Source: a virus (lineage: Duplodnaviria > Caudoviricetes). Taken from it: a stretch of DNA of 64,000 bases. The notes beneath the pieces were generated by a model, which had not been told where the DNA came from, ran no database searches, and saw nothing but the letters and a program-made list of their open reading frames with translations. Both the position numbers and the translations under genes were made by a program. The stretch lies in the IMG/VR virus record IMGVR_UViG_3300037761_000250, positions 1-64,000 of that record, one strand, 5' to 3'. Below are positions 4,472 through 59,153 of this stretch, one piece after another (positions within the stretch are counted from its first letter, which is position 1; each line of letters starts with the position of its first letter).

Positions 4472-7006
4472 GTGAGTGCGGGGGTGGCAAGCCTGGTTGT
4501 TGATAAACGAGCGTACTTTCAGCAGCTCGGGTATCAACCACATCCGAAGCAGTGGCTATACCACATGTCTAGATCTCGCTTCCGTGCTGCTGTATGTGGC
4601 CGGCGCTTTGGTAAGTCGTGCATGGCTGCTAGGGATCTTGAGCCGGAGCTGATGGTTCCTAACCGTCGCTATTGGATTGTCGGCCCTTGTGTCGATGAGT
4701 TGACGGAGATCTTTACAGATCGAGGTTGGTTGCGCTACGACGAAGTTGTTGTTGGCGATCGAACACTTTCGATTAACCCCAAGACGGGCTTAAGCGAGTG
4801 GGATACAGTTGAGAAGGTCTTGCGGAAGTCGGGTGTGCATCCTGTCATTCGAATGGAGGGACACTCCTTCTCATCTGTCTCCACACCTGATCACCGTTGG
4901 TTGACTAATAGACGTTGGGACAGTATTGGGGGTGCACGTGTTCCACGTCTTCCGGGGGTCTTGCAGCCGATAGCTGACAAATTGCCCAAGACTGACAACG
5001 GTTGGACTTGGCGCACTACAGCGACGCTTACGGCAGATGATAGAATTCCGACTGCGGCTCCCTGTGTCGATGTCCCTACCGAACCGAAGTACACTGATGC
5101 CTTTGTAGAACTGGTTGCTTGGATCTGGACTGAAGGCTCTCTGTCACGGAGTACGAGGCAGACCCAGACGTGCTTCCAGATACATCAGTCACACGTAGCG
5201 AATCCTGATAAGGTGAGTCGCATTCGTCGTGCGCTCGAGGCAGTTGGTGCCTCCTACTACGAATTTCAGGATGTTCGCAATGGCACACCAATGACTCACT
5301 TTGAGCTCAATGCTACTACGTCGTTCGAGTTCTGGAAGGTCTTTAAATCACATAAGGTGGTAGATCCCGAATTCATTACGTCCCTAACACGTGCACAGCT
5401 GCAGCTCTTTGTTGGCGTCTCCGTTCTCGGTGATGGGACAGGCGTACATCGAGAAACGCAGTGCAATATAGTGCAGGAGAATGAGAAACAGCTTTTTGCT
5501 GTGCAGATGGCCTGCCACCTCCTAGGCATTCGCACCAGCCTGCGTCAGCAGGATATGATGTCATACGGCAAGCCTGGAAAGAAGTGGGTGCTAGGCCTCC
5601 TAACGCAGACCTTCGTGAATCCTAAACGGGCTGTGTACAACGCCGGAGCCGAAGGTATGCGCATCACGTACGAGACGTACGAGGGGACTGTTTGGTGTGT
5701 AACAACTCGTAATGGTAACTGGCTTTCTCAGCGTAAGGGTTCTGTGTCATATACTGCAAATACCTACGATCTCGGGGAGAAAGAATTTCGGTATCTCTGG
5801 CAGGACATGATCATCAAGCTTCGGTTCGGTCGAGACAAGCGAGTCAAGAAGGCTTACAACAAGCGTAGCGGTGAGATGTATATAGAGTTTCCGTGGCAGA
5901 CGCGTGTTGAAGTAAGAAGCGCCCAGCACCCCGAGACGCTTGTTGGTGATGGCCTCCATGGCGCCATTATGTCGGAGGCCGCGAAGCACCGCAAGGACAC
6001 CTGGGAGCAGTATATTCGCGCAGCTCTTTCGGACTTCCGTGGATGGGCGACCTTCGTTACTACTCCAGAGGGCTTCAACTGGCTATATGACCTTTGGATG
6101 TTGGGCATTTCTGGAGATGTTGGGCTTAAGGACTACGAGTCGTGGCGGTTCCCGTCGTGGGACAACCCCATTGTGTATCCTGGCGGTCGTGAGGATGAGG
6201 AAATCAAGCTCATCGAGCGTACTACGGCACTAGAGTGGTTTATGCAGGAATTTGGTGCTGAGTTTGGCGCTTTCGTTGGTAAGATCTATGGCGAGTTCGA
6301 TCCGACGTTGCACATCAAGCGACACACCTTCAATCCTGCATGGGCTAACTACATTGCCTTCGACTGGGGCTTCACGAATCCGTTAGCTGCAGTAGAGTTC
6401 CAGGTTGACCCTTGGGATCGGGTGTATGTGTGGCGCGAGCACTACAAGTCCTTCCTACAATTGGGTGAACACATCCAGATTCTAAAGAATCGCCAGCAGC
6501 CTGAAGGGTACCACCTAGACGTTGGATTTGGTGATGCTGCCGATCCTGCGGCTGCGATGGAGATGAGTACACACTTTGTTGGTACGTGGGCACTTCCAGA
6601 GGCTAAGGAGAACTGGCGTCAAGGTGTGGATTTGGTTAAGAAGTTCTTGAAGCCTCGGGATGTGTATAGCCCCGGTGGTAGTCTGGTTGTTTGTGATGAG
6701 TATGGCACACCGCTTCAAGAGCCGTGGATGTTTATAGATCCATCCTGTATTAACACCATCCGAGAGTTCAACAACTATCGTGCAGCTGATGCTCGGCCCG
6801 AAGTCAACCCCCGAGAAGCAGCCAAGAAGCATGATGATCACGCGCTCGATGCTATTCGCTACGGACTCATGCACATCTTTGAGTTGGGTTGTGCGTCACG
6901 CTTGTCGGATGTGTACGACCTGAACGAGTTTTCCGACACCTCAAAAGCCTTCGGATCTGTTGAGGGCTCGGGGTACTTTACCACAAGCGATCTGGATGAC
7001 ATGTAG
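4472..7006 (+). CDS. terL: Terminase large subunit containing an intein
   Basis: Walker A GRRFGKS, Walker B IMSEA, TTPEG motif, nuclease DWG and DHALDA; collinear with 57618-59153 apart from a 358-aa insertion. Confidence 0.95.
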   Translation: MSAGVASLVVDKRAYFQQLGYQPHPKQWLYHMSRSRFRAAVCGRRFGKSCMAARDLEPELMVPNRRYWIVGPCVDELTEIFTDRGWLRYDEVVVGDRTLSINPKTGLSEWDTVEKVLRKSGVHPVIRMEGHSFSSVSTPDHRWLTNRRWDSIGGARVPRLPGVLQPIADKLPKTDNGWTWRTTATLTADDRIPTAAPCVDVPTEPKYTDAFVELVAWIWTEGSLSRSTRQTQTCFQIHQSHVANPDKVSRIRRALEAVGASYYEFQDVRNGTPMTHFELNATTSFEFWKVFKSHKVVDPEFITSLTRAQLQLFVGVSVLGDGTGVHRETQCNIVQENEKQLFAVQMACHLLGIRTSLRQQDMMSYGKPGKKWVLGLLTQTFVNPKRAVYNAGAEGMRITYETYEGTVWCVTTRNGNWLSQRKGSVSYTANTYDLGEKEFRYLWQDMIIKLRFGRDKRVKKAYNKRSGEMYIEFPWQTRVEVRSAQHPETLVGDGLHGAIMSEAAKHRKDTWEQYIRAALSDFRGWATFVTTPEGFNWLYDLWMLGISGDVGLKDYESWRFPSWDNPIVYPGGREDEEIKLIERTTALEWFMQEFGAEFGAFVGKIYGEFDPTLHIKRHTFNPAWANYIAFDWGFTNPLAAVEFQVDPWDRVYVWREHYKSFLQLGEHIQILKNRQQPEGYHLDVGFGDAADPAAAMEMSTHFVGTWALPEAKENWRQGVDLVKKFLKPRDVYSPGGSLVVCDEYGTPLQEPWMFIDPSCINTIREFNNYRAADARPEVNPREAAKKHDDHALDAIRYGLMHIFELGCASRLSDVYDLNEFSDTSKAFGSVEGSGYFTTSDLDDM
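4688..5761 (+). mobile_element. Intein with LAGLIDADG-type homing endonuclease domain
   Basis: Starts Cys (GP|CVDELTEI), block B TPDHRW, endonuclease motifs ELVAWIWTEG and FVGVSVLGDG, ends SYTAN|T; absent from second TerL. Confidence 0.92.
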
Positions 7007-36829: not shown

Positions 36830-37791
36830 TTTAATTTATTATTTACCACTTAATGTGGAAGTGTCGCGTCGACTTTGCAACTCAGTATCCGGCGGTCCTT
36901 CTTGTTTAAGACAGTGTATCTGTCACCGTCAATACTGGACACTTCCACATTAAGTGGTCAATAATAAATTAAAAGTTAAAAAGTTGTGAGTAGTCCCGGA
37001 CGGATTAGTCTTAGTCTGTTCTCCCAGGCCGGGACACCCAGTTCCAGAACTTTTAGTGCGCGCGCTCCGTGGTCTCGTCGCCGAGATTGCATACTCACAA
37101 CTTGGACAATAGCCAATATATCTAGATATACTGACTATTATCACTTGGGCACATAACTAGATGTCGTTTAATACCGAGGTTCTCCAACCAGGTACCCCAA
37201 GCTTAGTAAAGGTCAACAGACGAATAATAATCCCCTATCCGTTCTGCCCGTTACCGGATTTTCGACCTTCACTGATTCAACTTTTGGAACTACGGCGTCG
37301 ACCAAACCGCACTTGCCTCTTTAATCCCTATGCCTAATCCTGACGGACAGGTCTCCCTCACGGGTGGCCACGGGCCGCAACGCAGAGCTACCTCGTTACG
37401 GTAGATGCGGTTCCTAACCCTTATCAATCCCGGAGGATGATAAGGAATTAATTTGTCCATCGTGACGACAATGTTTGCTCCGTCCATGAACTTTCGGTTT
37501 GACCAGAGGAACTATTGCGCGGATTCAGGCAATTAATCTCACGATTAATGCAATCTCCGAGGAGATTATCTTTGCTCATCGCTCACACTTCCGGAGTGTC
37601 CACCGGAAGACTCCTACCACCGACAGGGAAAATTCGAAGGTATGCCTTTAGTTCGCTAAGCTGAACAGGTCATGACTCCTGCGTGCCACATCCGTGGAAG
37701 TACCACTGTTATATGACATACCAACGTTTTAGGTGTCCCGTTTTTCGCGCACCTTCGGGACCACAAGGCGAGGAAGCATTAAATGCCGCGG
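36830..37791 (-). ncRNA. Candidate large structured ncRNA (~960 nt)
   Basis: 36-bp IR (35/36) at 36830-36865/36938-36973, 12-bp helix 36981-36992/37092-37103, many hairpins, no credible ORF. Confidence 0.6.
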
Positions 37792-50354: not shown

Positions 50355-50892
50355 ATCGATGATCTTGAACTAGCTATCTTCAAGGTCATCGATGAGACAC
50401 CCCCCTCTGACCTGCGAGTATGCGGTGAATCTACGCGATCTGCTTTATTAGTAAATGAGAATCGATGATCTTGAACTAGCTATCTTAAAGATCATCTATG
50501 TGTCACCCCTTCTGACCTGCTCATATTCGGTGAATCCACGTGATCTGCTTTATTAGTAAATGAGAATTGACCACTGTCGATCACTACTTGATCTACTAGA
50601 TCAGTGGTCGTCGATTCTACGTGATCTGCTTTATTCGTAAATGAGAATGCCCTGGTCAGAGCGTTTTTGATCTCATTTACCTCTTAGAATGAAAATGAGA
50701 ATTTGCAAGATCAAAATACCTCCTGAGCTGCACATTCTCATTTTCTCTTATCTATGAGCGGATCACGTATATTTGATGGTTGTCAATTCTCATTTACTAA
50801 TATAGCAGATCACGTAGATTTGCCGAGTATGCGCAGGTCAGACCCGGTGTTCCATCGACGATCTTGAAGATAGATAGTTCAAGATCATCGAT
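50355..50892. repeat. ~105-bp unit: two direct copies, one partial, one inverted; putative replication origin
   Basis: Units 50355-50460, 50461-50565, partial 50616-50648, inverted 50785-50892; each full unit contains an internal palindrome. Confidence 0.85.
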
Positions 50893-51469
50893 GACCCGAG
50901 TGACTTTTTGCCCATTCTCCGCAAAAATCTATGCGGAGTATTGATTGAGGAGCTTTTTCTAGGTTAAATAGTCTAGAAATTGCCCGTTCCACTGACATTT
51001 CTTGCGATTGCCAGTGTCTGCCTTGTATTTGTCTATCTACTATTACCCATAGCGTTCCGGTTTTTAACCGGATGCGCATTGACGAACTAACCCGCTGAGT
51101 AAGTGACCTGGTTATTGTGGTCACTCTATTGTGGGTTGTGTTTTTGTCTGTGGGTTGCAACAGGATTTCGTAGACGACATCGAGATCTTTGGTCAACTGA
51201 CGAAAGGTCGCCAAATGTTGCATTACCTTTTCTTGTCCACAAGTTGGACAAGCGTAACAGCCACAACGCCAAAAATTGTTTTTGGTTGTTGGACAGACTT
51301 TCTTTTCTTTCACTTTTTCCTTTTCTTTCCTTTCCTTTTTCCTTTCCTTTTTCCAATTCACCCGTAGGGGTAAAGAAATTAGAGGAAATAGGAAAATTGG
51401 GAAAATTAGGAAAATTGGGAAAAATAAAGGTGGTGCGCGACTAGAAACCACCCGCCGTGACCGGGGCAT
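50885..51469 (-). CDS. Rep-like Zn-finger (CxxxxCxxC) protein with low-complexity N-terminus
   Basis: GGAGG RBS before ATG 51469; RCGCYACPTCG, LDVVYEI, ILRID shared with 18669-19349. Confidence 0.65.
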   Translation of the reverse strand: MPRSRRVVSSRAPPLFFPIFLIFPIFLFPLISLPLRVNWKKERKKERKEKEKVKEKKVCPTTKNNFWRCGCYACPTCGQEKVMQHLATFRQLTKDLDVVYEILLQPTDKNTTHNRVTTITRSLTQRVSSSMRIRLKTGTLWVIVDRQIQGRHWQSQEMSVERAISRLFNLEKAPQSILRIDFCGEWAKSHSGHR

Positions 51470-51900
51470 TTTAAGTCCCCTCCACATCCGCTGTGAAAAC
51501 CGAATCTAGCCGCTATAGAGTTGTCAAACGGTGTTGCTGGGATCGATGACTACTTGCCTATGGATGGTTTGGTTAGCGTTAGCGCCATTGTTGGTAGAGG
51601 GATATCCTGCTCGTTGCCACTCTGGGCAAGTCCACACTAGGAATCCGGATATACCGACGTAACGGTTGCCAATTCCACTTACACTCTAAGGCTATGCAGT
51701 TGTCGATCTTTTCCGCCCTATCCCGTACTGTTCGGGCGGAGTAATCGTGGCCTGTTTGTATTCCCGGTGGTTTCTCAAGCCACCTTTGGTACGGGACCAC
51801 GTTGTTAGGACAGTCAGACCTAACCTGACCGTACAATCCGCTCACTTACACTTACCCCTTATGGGCATCGGTGGGTGAACATTTGTAGTATCCCAACTAG

Positions 51901-52597: not shown

Positions 52598-52937
52598 TTA
52601 TACCACTATATGGTGACTCGCCACGGATGTACAGTTTTTACAGGCTACTGCCGATAAAGTCGATAACCTTAGTTTGGAACAGTTTGATTGCTCTGTTCCA
52701 ATTGTGCGTATAGGTGCCATTGATCCATCCGCCGCAACTGAGCGATTCTTCCGTTATGGTGGCAACTACGTACTTTGTAGGTGCTTGTGTCCAGTGGTCT
52801 GGATAGATTTCTACCAGAATGACGCCAATTGTCGGACCCGTGTAGGAATGAATCACTGTGTACCCATTGAGGGTACTTGGGATTTTTAGCATGACTTGTC
52901 CGTTTCTATGTGGGCAAGTCACCATATAGTGGTATAA
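52598..52937. repeat. Inverted-repeat pair enclosing gene 52638-52892 (right array cassette 1)
   Basis: ttataccactatatggtgactcgcc (52598-52622) vs ggcaagtcaccatatagtggtataa (52913-52937); 24/25. Confidence 0.9.
52638..52892 (-). CDS. Hypothetical protein
   Basis: YVVA.I....L..GGW..G.Y motif; ACGGACAA upstream of ATG. Confidence 0.65.
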   Translation of the reverse strand: MLKIPSTLNGYTVIHSYTGPTIGVILVEIYPDHWTQAPTKYVVATITEESLSCGGWINGTYTHNWNRAIKLFQTKVIDFIGSSL

Positions 52938-52979
52938 CACTTAATTGTCTAGGCATGTGCCTACTTGTCCGGAATTGTG

Positions 52980-53186
52980 CTAGTTGCGAGGATAGACCAT
53001 TTCGCACTTTTCGCACTCTACTGTGCGGGTTTGTGCAACTGTGTCCAGATCCTCATCATTCACGTACATCATCCCGGAAACCCACGAATGAAGGCATTCG
53101 TCCGGATAATCTGGAATGTCCGGATCGTCTGGATAGCTGTTTCTGTCCTCATAGTCCATTTCGAGGAAACTGTCCAGTTCGTACAT
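52980..53186 (-). CDS. Acidic Zn-ribbon small protein
   Basis: CLH.W...CEKC; ATG 53186. Confidence 0.6.
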   Translation of the reverse strand: MYELDSFLEMDYEDRNSYPDDPDIPDYPDECLHSWVSGMMYVNDEDLDTVAQTRTVECEKCEMVYPRN

Positions 53187-53190
53187 TTTG

Positions 53191-53361
53191 CTACTTCCTG
53201 TCCAGATAGAGAACATTGTCACCGATTACCACAAATGACTGACCGGTACCGTTTCCCTGGATTTGCGCATTCCATGCGCAAAAGCCCGGACTGTCCTCAG
53301 TTGGGCAGGATGGGGCAATTGCGAACAGAATCGCAATTAGGAAGTTTAAGAAAAATTCCAT
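53191..53361 (-). CDS. Small secreted/membrane protein
   Basis: Hydrophobic N-terminus, PSCPTEDS..C.WNA..GNG.G.SF; GAGG RBS. Confidence 0.65.
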   Translation of the reverse strand: MEFFLNFLIAILFAIAPSCPTEDSPGFCAWNAQIQGNGTGQSFVVIGDNVLYLDRK

Positions 53362-53457
53362 GGTTTGTACCTCTCTGTCCGTTTTGTGTGGACAAGTAGG
53401 CGCAAACCTAGACAATTCTAGATGAATCCGGACATATGCTGCCATGTCCAATTTGTC

Positions 53458-53724
53458 TTAAAGGATCTGATCTTTCCGAACTAGGTAGGTTCTGTGTGAA
53501 TTGACCGATTCGACTAGGTATCGGTCAATTGGGATGACAAATCCATTGTGGTACTGTTCGTACGGCTTTGCGTCGAGTATCACCTTCACCCGAATTGGGA
53601 TCAATGCGTCATCTAGCATGACTTCGACCGTATCCTGGATATTTGTGCCGTAATAATCGGTTCCGTACTTTTCGCTGCATTCGCGGCAATAGCGCGGATC
53701 GTGGTCGTGTGTCCTAGTTGTCAT
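53458..53724 (-). CDS. Hypothetical protein
   Basis: H.H...C..C; ORF inside cassette. Confidence 0.6.
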   Translation of the reverse strand: MTTRTHDHDPRYCRECSEKYGTDYYGTNIQDTVEVMLDDALIPIRVKVILDAKPYEQYHNGFVIPIDRYLVESVNSHRTYLVRKDQIL

Positions 53725-53730
53725 GATTTG

Positions 53731-53976
53731 TCAGTCCGTCAACAGATTCGCGTGGAGTAGATTGGAAAGTCTGGTATGGAACCTAGTGCGTGCGATGATG
53801 TATCTGTCCGTAAACTCACAGTCGCCCAATTCGTCCCGTTCGAGACTTTTTATTGAAATGTTCCCCACGACCCATTCGTCCTTATCCTCATTGGATGCGA
53901 GGATAATACCAAATACGGGGGTAACATATGCCATGTGCACTTTGTACCCTTGGATACTATCCGGAACCTTTAGCAT
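53731..53976 (-). CDS. Hypothetical protein
   Basis: ORF inside cassette; GGACAA upstream of ATG. Confidence 0.6.
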   Translation of the reverse strand: MLKVPDSIQGYKVHMAYVTPVFGIILASNEDKDEWVVGNISIKSLERDELGDCEFTDRYIIARTRFHTRLSNLLHANLLTD

Positions 53977-54025
53977 GATTTGTCCATTCTGTTAGGACAT
54001 AGCAGCATATGACCGGATTCATCGT

Positions 54026-54548
54026 GACTTATACCGTTATAAAGTGACTCGCCTGGATTGCCTCAGATGTGGACGTTGTGCCGTTCGCGTAGTACGTCCC
54101 CATTGAGCAGAAGGTACTTTTCGCTCCATGTGCGATCAATGTACTCATTGGCCAGATTGATCGAATCGTTGTACTTTGCCCCAAGAACCTTGGAAACGAC
54201 CATTCCGTCCGTAGTTCTGTGGAATGCTCCATTTTCGGAGGTAAGTGCGCATGGCCAGGCTTCGACCATAATGCCCACAATGCCTTCACTTGGGACGATA
54301 AGGACGTCTCCGTCCTTAATGCCGTCTTCGACCTGAGTTAGGTTATATGCGTCTCTTGACCCATATGCGAAGATATGCACCTTTGGTGCGTATTGTGCTT
54401 CTTGTGCGATTCGTACTTCTCCGACGGTTAGGTCCGTTCTGCAACTTCCGTCACAGTTAGACAGGTTATCCACGCATTTGTCGGAATTGTTCATGATGAT
54501 CCCTTTGTCCGTTTTGACTAAGCGAGTCACCATATAACGGTATAAGTC
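54026..54548. repeat. Inverted-repeat pair enclosing gene 54063-54494 (right array cassette 4)
   Basis: gacttataccgttataaagtgactcgc (54026-54052) vs gcgagtcaccatataacggtataagtc (54522-54548); 25/27. Confidence 0.9.
54063..54494 (-). CDS. Hypothetical protein
   Basis: AYN.TQ....IKDGDVL.V.SE..VG....AWP.A motif. Confidence 0.7.
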   Translation of the reverse strand: MNNSDKCVDNLSNCDGSCRTDLTVGEVRIAQEAQYAPKVHIFAYGSRDAYNLTQVEDGIKDGDVLIVPSEGIVGIMVEAWPCALTSENGAFHRTTDGMVVSKVLGAKYNDSINLANEYIDRTWSEKYLLLNGDVLRERHNVHI

Positions 54549-54550
54549 TA

Positions 54551-54937
54551 GACGTGTTCGGACAAATGCCACTTTATCTGTTTTGCACTACTTGCGGATG
54601 ATTGTACCATTCTCGTCATAGAAGACGATTTGTCCGTTTGCATCCCGGAATGAGATGAATTGACCGGAAAGTGCCATACCGGTGTTATGGCGCACGTTTG
54701 TGCGCAAAACACCAGAATCGGGGGAAATGTCCGGGTTTGCTTCGGCTTGACGCAGTACATCCCAATATGTGTACTTTGCCTTGATACCCGGGGGTTTGTT
54801 CACCTTGATGCGCTTTGGGCGCCTTTGTCCGTTTTTGTGAACCATTCCGTGGTAATTGGGCATAATACCCTCCATGTCTGGGAAAATCGGAATTGTCCAG
54901 ATTTTTACAGACAAAGTGGCATATGACCGAACACGTC
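54551..54937. repeat. Inverted-repeat pair enclosing gene 54588-54863 (right array cassette 5)
   Basis: gacgtgttcggacaaatgccactttatctg (54551-54580) vs cagacaaagtggcatatgaccgaacacgtc (54908-54937); 27/30. Confidence 0.9.
54588..54863 (-). CDS. Hypothetical basic protein
   Basis: GGAGG RBS before ATG 54863. Confidence 0.65.
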   Translation of the reverse strand: MPNYHGMVHKNGQRRPKRIKVNKPPGIKAKYTYWDVLRQAEANPDISPDSGVLRTNVRHNTGMALSGQFISFRDANGQIVFYDENGTIIRK

Positions 54938-55410
54938 ACAAAGTGCTACGCAATGTGTATGTATGCGCTGTTTAGTTGGCAATGTACCGAAATGTCCGAA
55001 TTTCTCCGGCTGCCTACGGTATGTCCGTAGCGTCCCGTTTTCGGGCACTTTAGGCGAAATACGGACTATGTCCGTACATCACCTGAAATGTCCGTTATGC
55101 CAGGGGATCGTACCCTATGCCTGAAACGAACCTTTCGTACGCCCTTACGAGCTTTTGGGCGTATTCGTGGGAGATGTCACCTTGGTAGTGGTCTGCTATG
55201 GATTGTGCCACTTCCAGGTGGTATTCCTGCATTTCGGTGGAGTAGTCCTGTTTTGTCATGGTGTGTACTCCTATGTCCTGCTATGTCCGTTTCGCCCCTG
55301 TCTGGGCGCTTTCGTCCATTGTAGCATGTGGGAACGCTCCCAGTATGTTGATCTTGGAGTAATTTCGCTATTTGCCAAAAGAGACCAATCTGGACATTTG
55401 ATGATAGATC

Positions 55411-55500
55411 ATGTTAAATGATGTTAAATGATGTTAAATTATTATTTGTTATAATATATTGTGATATAATATGATATATAGCTATATTATTGATTTGTCC
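55411..55500. promoter_or_regulatory. AT-rich divergent control region with 3 x 10-bp tandem repeat
   Basis: atgttaaatg atgttaaatg atgttaaatt (55411-55440) followed by TATAAT hexamers, between divergent arms. Confidence 0.55.
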
Positions 55501-55659
55501 AATTTGTTGTAATTGCACGCCAACCCCCACAAACTGCAAGGTAAATATTGACTGTCCACATTGGACTCAAGGTCTACATTGACCGTCCAGGAGCTGGGCG
55601 AGCTGGCTGATGTCGCCCAGCTATAGACAAGACAGGACATAAGGTGTACCGTACAGCTC

Positions 55660-57617: not shown

Positions 57618-59153
57618 ATGGCTATTGACATAGATCATAACGAGTATGAGGATGATGCTGTCTATGATGTAGAAATAGATGTCAATGACCAGGAACAGGA
57701 GCCTCCTAAAACTAGGGTTGATAAAAACAAGTATTTCGACATGGTTAACTACCAGCCACATGGTCGACAGTGGCTTTTTCATCGAAGTAAGGCAAGGTTC
57801 AAGGTAGTCGTAGCCGGCAGGCGAGCTGGAAAATCCTTAATGACTGCCAAGGACATTGAACCAATGCTAATGGTTCCAAATAAACGTGTCTGGCTAGTCG
57901 GAAACACGTATGATTTAGCTGAAAAAGAATTCCGGGTGATCTGGGATGACATGATTATCCGGCTAGGATTTGGGCAGGACAAGCGGGTAATTAAGGCTTA
58001 CAACCGTAAACAAGGAAATATGTTCATCAAGTTTCCTTGGAATACAATCATTGAATGTCGGTCGGCCGAACGTAAGGAAACCTTGGTTGGTGACTCGCTA
58101 GACTTAGTGGTACTGTGCGAGGCAGCCAAGCACCTCCGCGAGACCTGGGAGCGGTTTCTTAGGCCGGCGCTGTCGGACCGGCGTGGTAGTGCCATTTTTA
58201 GTACAACTCCAGAAGGACAAAACTGGGTTTACGAATTATGGCAGCATGGCCAGAACCCTCGTCCAGAATATGTAGATTATCAGAGCTGGTCGTATCCGAG
58301 TTGGGAAAATGATGTTATCTATCCTGGGGGATATGATGATCCGGAAATTCAGCTCATGCGACTTACCATGTCTTCGGACGAATTTGACCAGGAAATTGGC
58401 GCTAGCTTCACTAGTTTTAGTGGTAAGATCTATGCCGAGTTCGATGAGAATGTTCATGTCAAGGAACATATTTTCAACCCGGCGTGGAGAAATTATGTTT
58501 GTATGGACTTTGGATTCAATAACCCATTCGCAGCGGTTGAATTTCAGGTAGACCCGCAGGACAGAATATACGTATGGCGAGAATACTACAAGTCCGGAAT
58601 GCGCTTGGAAGACCACCTGGATTTTATGAGATCAAGGAAACAGCCAGATGGTTACCGAGTTGATATGTGCTTTGGTGATGCGGCTGACCCGGAAGCTATC
58701 GAAACCATAAATGTAAAGTTTGGTCCCTGCGTCGGCGACCCGTTGTCTAAGGTTAACTGGCGAGAGGGTATTGAGCAGGTCAAGTTTTTCTTAAAAGTTC
58801 AAGGTGAAGGCGATGACGGCCAGCCTTGGTTGATTTTAGACCATAGTTGTAAAAATGGCATTCGAGAGTTTAACAACTACAAGGCTCCAGACACTGGTCG
58901 AGTTGAACGTAACCCACGAGAAGATGCCAAGAAGCATGATGACCACTTCTTAGACGCACTAAGATATGGAATTATGCATGTGTTCAAGCTAGGATATCGA
59001 GTTCGGTTCAGTGATGTCATGTCAGTAGATGAATTACGAAGAACTGTTAGTCCACAAGACGGCGGAGGATACGTAAACCTGGCCGATGTTAAAGGGTATC
59101 CGGCGTTGGAGAATGCTGGTTTCGTAACTTTAGACGATCGAAGGCGGTTTTGA
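57618..59153 (+). CDS. terL: Terminase large subunit (intein-free)
   Basis: GRRAGKS, VLCEA, STTPEG, MDFG, DHFLDA. Confidence 0.95.
   Translation: MAIDIDHNEYEDDAVYDVEIDVNDQEQEPPKTRVDKNKYFDMVNYQPHGRQWLFHRSKARFKVVVAGRRAGKSLMTAKDIEPMLMVPNKRVWLVGNTYDLAEKEFRVIWDDMIIRLGFGQDKRVIKAYNRKQGNMFIKFPWNTIIECRSAERKETLVGDSLDLVVLCEAAKHLRETWERFLRPALSDRRGSAIFSTTPEGQNWVYELWQHGQNPRPEYVDYQSWSYPSWENDVIYPGGYDDPEIQLMRLTMSSDEFDQEIGASFTSFSGKIYAEFDENVHVKEHIFNPAWRNYVCMDFGFNNPFAAVEFQVDPQDRIYVWREYYKSGMRLEDHLDFMRSRKQPDGYRVDMCFGDAADPEAIETINVKFGPCVGDPLSKVNWREGIEQVKFFLKVQGEGDDGQPWLILDHSCKNGIREFNNYKAPDTGRVERNPREDAKKHDDHFLDALRYGIMHVFKLGYRVRFSDVMSVDELRRTVSPQDGGGYVNLADVKGYPALENAGFVTLDDRRRF

Follow-up and report, generated by a model that had tools for sequence, protein, structure and literature searches.

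Abutting inverted-repeat gene cassettes in the early region of an uncultured tailed phage and their proposed role in messenger RNA processing

Layout of the cassette arrays and their cargo

The DNA analysed here, which we call the window, comprises the first 64 kb (64,000 nucleotides) of the 79,278-bp virus record IMGVR_UViG_3300037761_000250 (Caudoviricetes), a linear genome from sediment metagenomes that is rated 100% complete. Between positions 52598 and 54937 the window carries five consecutive small gene cassettes (array 1), each enclosed by its own pair of inverted repeats (IRs), the two arms of which lie 290-545 nt apart with one or two open reading frames (ORFs) between them. These five pairs had been listed in an initial annotation of the window. 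All were recovered both by a repeat search and by our own seed-and-extend scan of the whole record for pairs of at least 20 nt that are at least 80% complementary and lie within 1.5 kb. The scan found 14 long-range pairs in the 79-kb genome, compared with 0-2 (mean about 0.3) in 20 composition-preserving shuffles. All sequences come from metagenome assemblies, and the repeats might in principle be chance matches or assembly artefacts; we consider the probability of this to be negligible. The count far exceeds that in the shuffles, and the same layout, with diverged sequence, occurs in independent contigs from other samples (L003/L004/L009, L005, L006, L007 and L029) and from several assemblers, which rules out an assembly artefact.

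All genes of array 1 lie on the minus strand, and each pair is therefore given here as 3' arm/5' arm. Cassette 5, the most upstream (54551-54581/54907-54937; 31 nt, 90% complementary), encodes a 91-aa protein (54588-54863) with orthologues of 78% identity in L005 and L006 and 52% in L007. A stretch of 28 nt in the 5' arm of this cassette is unchanged in L005 and L006, and the arm covaries in L007; the 3' arm begins 6 nt past the stop codon. Cassette 4 (54026-54052/54522-54548; 27 nt, 93%) encloses a gene for a 143-aa protein of the P0001 family (54063-54494) and has a 5' arm 97% identical to that of L005. Two genes occupy cassette 3 (53421-53449/53995-54023; 29 nt, 93%), together spanning 53458-53976 and encoding proteins of 81 aa (53731-53976) and 88 aa (53458-53724). 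Similarly, cassette 2 (52943-52970/53390-53417; 28 nt, 89%), the 5' arm of which is kept in L005 and L006, holds two genes (52980-53361), one for a 56-aa membrane-type protein (53191-53361) and one for a 68-aa protein (52980-53186). Cassette 1 (52598-52622/52913-52937; 25 nt, 96%) contains an ORF for an 84-aa protein (52638-52892). Both arms of all five cassettes were identified in the IR scan and in the predicted fold. The stop codons of the cargo genes lie 6-15 nt from the 3' arm. The spacers between successive cassettes measure 5, 3, 2 and 2 nt, in agreement with the separation of 2-5 nt noted initially, and the earlier description of one or two small minus-strand genes per pair likewise holds.

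The initial annotation had also described each pair as distinct in sequence. We found instead that arm sequences are shared between cassettes: cassettes 1 and 4 have arms of one family (A; 80% alike) and cassettes 3 and 5 of another (B), while cassette 2 has arms of a third (C).

A second array of the same build (array 2) lies on the minus strand at 645-2926. It consists of four pairs (645-672/962-990, 992-1024/1374-1406, 1409-1439/1937-1967 and 2513-2542/2897-2926), with two gaps of only 1-2 nt, and like array 1 it runs divergently from a terminase module. The first of the genes in array 2 (681-911) belongs to Pfam GP79, a family of right-arm genes of cluster A mycobacteriophages. The arms of array 2 are unrelated to those at 52-55 kb, and no common sequence is recognisable across the array-1 arm families A-E and the four array-2 families.

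Pfam and PHROG searches of the cargo proteins returned almost nothing; the 91-aa protein of cassette 5, for example, falls in no Pfam or PHROG family. The 56-aa protein of cassette 2 matches phrog_19904; homologues occur in Microbacterium and Arthrobacter phages, and the L006 version shows 83% identity. A search of 1.8 billion representatives gave no relative for the 81-aa protein of cassette 3, which is distantly paralogous (25% identity) to the 84-aa protein of cassette 1. The 143-aa protein of cassette 4 has four homologues (P0002-P0005) in a large protein collection, all of them IR-enclosed in their contigs, and the AlphaFold model of the P0001 family has a mean predicted local distance difference test (pLDDT) score of 52. 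The conserved core of the cassette-4 protein (DGDVLIVP...GIVG..VEAWP) recurs as a domain inside Streptomyces phage proteins of about 445-490 aa that are annotated as hypothetical, for example SoJo gene 49 (L024 3611-5083) and the product of L025 4225-5559. In actinobacteriophages with homologues of single cargo proteins (SoJo, PapayaSalad, OneinaGillian, RhynO and Molivia), those regions contain no gene-enclosing repeats; that of OneinaGillian has a local palindrome only.

Probable pairing of the arms in the sense RNA

All five closing helices appear in the minimum free energy (MFE) fold predicted for the 2356-nt sense RNA. The helices are 25-33 bp long, with duplex energies of -41 to -57 kcal/mol, and the 9-12 bp at each helix end are perfect. 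About 17 of 19 distinct true mismatches fall in the central third, an observation that is weakened, although not removed, by the blindness of the repeat finder to mismatches in the last few positions.

Comparison with relatives indicates that the pairing has been maintained while the sequence changed. When the window, L005 and L007 were aligned over cassette 5 with RNAalifold, the closing helix was kept, with four compensatory pairs and four one-sided wobble changes, even as the length of the enclosed loop varied from 387 to 512 nt. Similarly, the cassette carrying the GP79-family gene differs from its counterpart in L029 by three arm substitutions, namely a double change from U-A to C-G and a C to U change that gives G.U; the neighbouring protein of the two genomes is 96% identical. 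The arm covariation expected of homologous phages under the initial interpretation is thus present.

The mismatches also distinguish the two strands. Counting distinct events by hand, and reading the GP79 rows (W_gp79 and L29_gp79) with a one-base bulge, we found that transition mismatches in the array-1 family produce G.U on the sense strand in 16 cases and on the antisense strand in 2; in array 2 the corresponding numbers are 7 and 4. The raw strand tally of G.U is 29:11 (p = 0.006). Mutational asymmetry should not give such an excess, we infer, because transition fluxes balance at compositional equilibrium. Five of nine pairs are more stable as sense-strand duplexes, by 2.4-9 kcal/mol; for the remaining four the strands differ by less than 1 kcal/mol, and one of these favours the antisense strand by 0.7 kcal/mol. 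A consensus scan of the minus strand found no terminator-like site inside array 1. Together, the predicted fold, the covariation, the sense-strand G.U bias and the terminator-free array support the earlier proposal that each gene or gene pair would be looped out by an imperfect helix of about 30 bp, and we conclude that the RNA helices very probably exist and are under selection.

Helices of this kind need not be cut. They could act as insulators or as translational switches, with the 5' arm masking the ribosome-binding site (RBS) until the 3' arm displaces it, or with the closed loop favouring re-initiation on the same cistron. Pairing between the 5' and 3' untranslated regions is known to control translation of icaR (PMC3868564), and the stop codons of the cassette genes lie close enough to the 3' arm (6-15 nt) to suit such a mechanism. 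In predicted folds that lack the 3' arm, moreover, the inner half of the 5' arm pairs with the Shine-Dalgarno/start region in most cassettes. Arm-to-start complementarity beats that of shuffled arms at p <= 0.02 in 4 of the 13 usable cassettes, with a mean z of -1.5 over all 14 rows, one of which is invalid owing to overlap of arm and start. In most cassettes, however, this complementarity is not significant, and helices of 25-33 bp greatly exceed the length required of a switch; in a bacterial cell, RNase III would be expected to act on them. We therefore regard uncut insulators or switches as unlikely. A variant in which the helices turn translation on has partial support, from the cassettes in which the 5' arm is complementary to its own RBS region; support for masking of the RBS by the 5' arm is weak. 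The 5' arms predicted to pair with their own start region include 52913-52937, 53390-53417 and 962-990.

Exchange of cassettes and explanations at the DNA level

The window is collinear with L005 and L006, which have five abutting cassettes each; L007 has two. Between the window and L005, the arms are 89-100% identical and the cargo 76-80%. One replacement concerns cassette 3: relative to L005 and L006, the 5' arm with its leader is 89% identical and the sequence from the 3' arm onward 92%, whereas the coding stretch between them is unrelated, encoding the 81- and 88-aa proteins in the window and an unrelated 73-aa protein in L005 and L006. Whole cassettes also come and go. L005 has two extra complete cassettes upstream of cassette 5, as well as an additional 61-aa gene inside a family-A cassette, and in L029 the entire array-2 cassette 992-1406 is absent, with nine bases left between the neighbouring arms. 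The swaps, gains and losses fall at the arms, and the arms outconserve the cargo; the boundaries of change thus respect the arms, and the refuting condition named in the initial annotation, insertion borders that disregard the arms, did not hold. All cassettes in all relatives keep one orientation, as the initial annotation had noted for the window, and we saw no inverted or relocated copies.

The association of arms and cargo extends to a phage that is otherwise unrelated and has a P22-type portal (L003/L004/L009). Here two abutting cassettes with family-A arms head the early genes, and family-A-like arms surround a P0001 homologue (L003 9972-11475, also in L004 and L009). This is evidence that an arm pair and its cargo can move jointly from one phage lineage to another. 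Further searches added little: a DNA search of the 3-kb array region against 50,697 phage records gave no match, no P0001-family related locus was confirmed in metagenome contigs and the viral contigs yielded only the L003-type phage again, and arm-pattern scans of viral and metagenome contigs gave only single chance matches without inverted repeats. Contigs from the sediment DNA runs contained fragments of relatives with no interpretable joints.

Exchange bounded by the arms raises the question of whether the arms are mainly portable homology patches for shuffling accessory genes, with their inversion having no role in RNA. The swap of cargo in cassette 3 is exact, with conserved arm and leader sequences at its borders, and arms of different cassettes share outer segments; in one of the extra L005 cassettes, the preceding sequence and the outer part of the arm match the lead-in and start of the cassette-5 arm of the window. 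Shuffling of this kind is documented for the promoter early stem-loop (PeSL) elements of T4-type phages (PMC2839356). Like PeSL cassettes (PMC2839356, PMC4122927), the cassettes described here involve small accessory ORFs, hyperplastic early regions and conserved intergenic motifs with indels and replacements, and gene changes bounded by the motif are found here as well (the cargo swap, the two extra L005 cassettes and the absence in L029). PeSLs, however, are direct copies of a single motif that combines a sigma-70 early promoter with a terminator stem-loop, whereas here each cassette has its own inverted pair and the arms have no conserved promoter or terminator. Moreover, homology patches need not be inverted copies, nor would they be expected to show compensatory changes, a wobble bias on the sense strand or central mismatches. 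A role as homology patches alone is thus quite improbable; such a role can coexist with one in RNA. Two related candidates were dropped: a promoter or terminator in each arm, since no consistent consensus was found, and the family-A arm as a T7/SP6-type promoter, since we saw no ORF of sufficient length for a single-subunit RNA polymerase.

Alternatively, the cassettes might be mobile DNA units with terminal inverted repeats (TIRs), moved by an enzyme acting in trans, through circle transposition or site-specific recombination, and inserting beside existing ends. The presence or absence of whole cassettes with their arms in close relatives (992-1406 relative to L029, two extra in L005) is what such movement would produce, and the occurrence of family-A arms around a P0001-family gene in the unrelated phage with a P22-type portal also fits. 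In addition, the 1-5 nt spacers resemble abutted insertion sequence (IS) ends, such as the circle junctions of IS30 and IS3. Against this, searches of the complete genome revealed no resolvase, tyrosine recombinase, rve, DDE_Tnp_1 or Y1 transposase domain, and there are no target-site duplications. The G.U bias of the sense strand is not expected of a DNA site, and in one case the arms stay while the cargo alone changes. Because every cassette has different ends, a single enzyme could not recognise them all. Action of an unknown enzyme or a host enzyme is conceivable; we consider DNA mobility very unlikely.

More specific DNA-level systems each miss a defining feature. The initial annotation had raised the possibility of integron-like gene capture, and the cassettes do resemble those of integrons and of clusters of attC sites lacking integron-integrases (CALIN) in being promoterless single-gene units in one orientation, with boundary elements that keep fold rather than sequence. 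An attC site, however, is a local hairpin downstream of the ORF that needs IntI, whereas here the arms enclose the ORF and there is no integrase: neither the complete 79-kb genome nor the L009 record contains the tyrosine recombinase domain PF00589, a comparison that concerns integrons only, as a CALIN lacks IntI by definition. Nor did we find local attC-type hairpins, and adjacent arms of neighbouring cassettes are not complementary. As no integrase, resolvase or transposase was found, the integron-like reading is not supported. Invertible segments (Gin/Cin type or shufflon) were rejected because the genome has no resolvase/invertase or tyrosine recombinase and all relatives show one orientation, and TIR transposons or miniature inverted-repeat transposable elements because rve, DDE_Tnp_1 and Y1_Tnp are missing, the ends differ and the spacers (5, 3, 2 and 2 nt) are not repeated on both sides of any cassette.

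Proposed processing of the early transcript and its genomic setting

The directions of the surrounding genes indicate that a leftward unit begins with array 1 and is divergent to the structural genes. DNA polymerase, primase, helicases and an exonuclease are encoded by leftward genes at about 10-50 kb, whereas from 55.66 kb on the genes point rightward and encode terminase, portal, protease and capsid. The upstream part of the leftward unit (54938-55560, minus strand) is an AT-rich divergent region homologous to L005 1-538. Besides promoter-like sites on the minus strand (55513-55408), it contains four CGGACAT motifs, a local hairpin (55042-55094) and a gene encoding 54 aa (55095-55259); in the consensus scan, promoter-like sites occur only in this divergent region upstream of the array.

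We propose that the region is transcribed leftward as one polycistronic early RNA, in which the sequence before each gene or gene pair would pair with the sequence after it to form a helix of 25-33 bp with perfect ends and a central mismatch. Each cistron would then form a closed loop together with its RBS, with neighbouring helices 1-5 nt apart. A helix of such length and form would be expected to serve as a substrate for the double-strand-specific RNase III of the host; neither RNase III nor RtcB was found in searches of the phage genome, and a host enzyme would be needed for cleavage because the phage has no RNase III of its own. Cutting would free mono- or bicistronic mRNAs with their 5' and 3' ends clamped in a half-helix, where they would probably be shielded from exonucleases and from 5'-end-dependent decay, and the folding of each cistron would be insulated from that of its neighbours. 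The arms would double as recombination joints, between which cargo is exchanged and at which whole cassettes are gained or lost. This second role is suggested by the arms being better conserved than the cargo and common to several phages, and it would account for cassette-wise exchange without a dedicated recombinase.

This proposal resembles known RNA processing systems in several respects. RNase III cuts the long stems that flank 16S and 23S rRNA (PMC6582327), and the cassettes share with these stalks the long-range complementary flanks, irregular helices of two to three turns and back-to-back neighbours; they would likewise lie in a polycistronic precursor. Flanking helices of at least about 20 bp, typical of processing stalks, are present in all five cassettes of the MFE fold, and covariation on the transcribed strand appears as compensatory pairs and as the 16:2 wobble ratio in the array-1 family. 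The differences are that here protein-coding cistrons with an RBS are enclosed, in arrays of four or five and in a phage, and that cleavage is putative. RNase III also excises an ORF-bearing intervening sequence (IVS) bounded by inverted repeats from the 23S rRNA of Coxiella burnetii (PMC4990558). Both the IVS and the cassettes are insertable units in which a small ORF lies within inverted repeats that form, or here would form, an RNase III stem. The IVS, however, sits in an rRNA helix and is discarded, whereas here the enclosed genes are presumably what processing would yield, and several units follow one another in an mRNA. In the early regions of phages T7 and T3, the RNase III sites (R0.3-R1.3) are local hairpins between genes, with a central internal loop. 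Like these, the cassettes would allow a polycistronic phage early transcript to be cut by host RNase III into stable single mRNAs; unlike them, each helix has one strand before the gene and the other after it, and the two ends of the product would therefore stay paired. A literature search found no description of gene-enclosing stems in phage mRNAs, which agrees with the initial annotation, to which no described phage system with this layout was known.

Several observations weigh against the proposal. The strand bias in array 2 is weak (7:4), and the strand-bias counts are small, with some events inherited in common. Sequence conservation in the arms exceeds what a purely structural constraint would demand. 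All members of family B, for instance, retain a U.U mismatch (GGTCA opposite GGACA), a hint that a sequence-specific reader acts as well. The presence or absence of whole cassettes also fits a mobility mechanism at the DNA level, and translating ribosomes and co-transcriptional folding could block pairing across 300-600 nt in vivo. The sequencing-run search gave three sediment DNA runs and listed no RNA run carrying the sequence. On balance, we assign a probability of about 0.55 to the full reading, in which helices in the sense RNA are combined with RNase III-type processing and end-clamping of each cistron, on the basis of sequence analysis and of analogy with the systems above. We are more tentative about a general mRNA architecture, in which accessory genes would be closed by helices and trimmed by a host double-strand-specific nuclease into end-clamped or ligated circular messages, with the arms acting as plug-in sockets, so that the RNA structure itself would fix the borders of gene exchange without a dedicated recombinase; this is possible, albeit doubtful on present evidence.

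If the proposal is correct, each fast-evolving early gene would be a self-contained expression unit whose RNA is cut out, stabilised and insulated, which would explain how unrelated small genes dropped into an operon still get expressed. It would extend rRNA-style processing stalks to protein-coding messages, and it is relevant to how genes for host takeover and anti-defence turn over. Annotators could use long-range inverted repeats that abut one another and surround small ORFs as a signature of early accessory islands in uncultured phages, and the arms might serve as natural parts to insulate genes in synthetic operons.

A short motif, CGGACA(T), accompanies these structures. Read on the sense strand, it precedes most start codons; the region 52.9-55.3 kb contains 10 of the 21 copies of its complement in the genome, and four copies of CGGACAT lie between 54981 and 55094. 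It also occurs in antisense inside the family-B 3' arms, where the matching 5' arm always reads GGTCA. The nearest published motifs in actinobacteriophages are start-associated sequences and their extended forms (SAS/ESAS), as well as start-associated inverted repeats of 17-18 bp (PMC3203893, PMC7302621). SAS/ESAS directly precede the starts of small genes that run leftward close to one end of the genome, and the CGGACA-type motif likewise lies upstream of starts; unlike the cassette arms, SAS/ESAS are short, local and of one consensus, and are not gene-enclosing complementary pairs. A regulator may bind at CGGACA(T), much as at start-associated sequences or stoperators, and the clustering of the motif, together with the U.U mismatch of family B, suggests a sequence-specific factor acting on top of the structure. 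The best matches of the conserved proteins are in actinobacteriophages, at about 30% identity, and an actinobacterial host is a weak guess.

The IR scan also found repeats in other parts of the genome. Dense direct and inverted repeats of 33-61 nt occupy 50355-50892, with five interlocking pairs that are 89-94% complementary, and a low-complexity ORF (50885-51487) follows; an origin is one possibility for this block, another kind of structured element a second. The tRNA genes, six in number, are located at 35-39 kb, and within an ORF-free stretch of about 1 kb from tRNA-Leu to tRNA-Met, a near-perfect 36-bp helix encloses 72 nt (36830-36973). Finally, the genome encodes two large-terminase paralogues that are 48% identical (4472-7006 and 57618-59153). 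The former contains an extra segment of about 285 residues (75-360) without a Pfam match and lies inside a 10-kb block of 53% G+C, compared with about 40% for the replication genes; mosaic insertion, a satellite-like element residing in the genome or chimeric assembly might each account for this.

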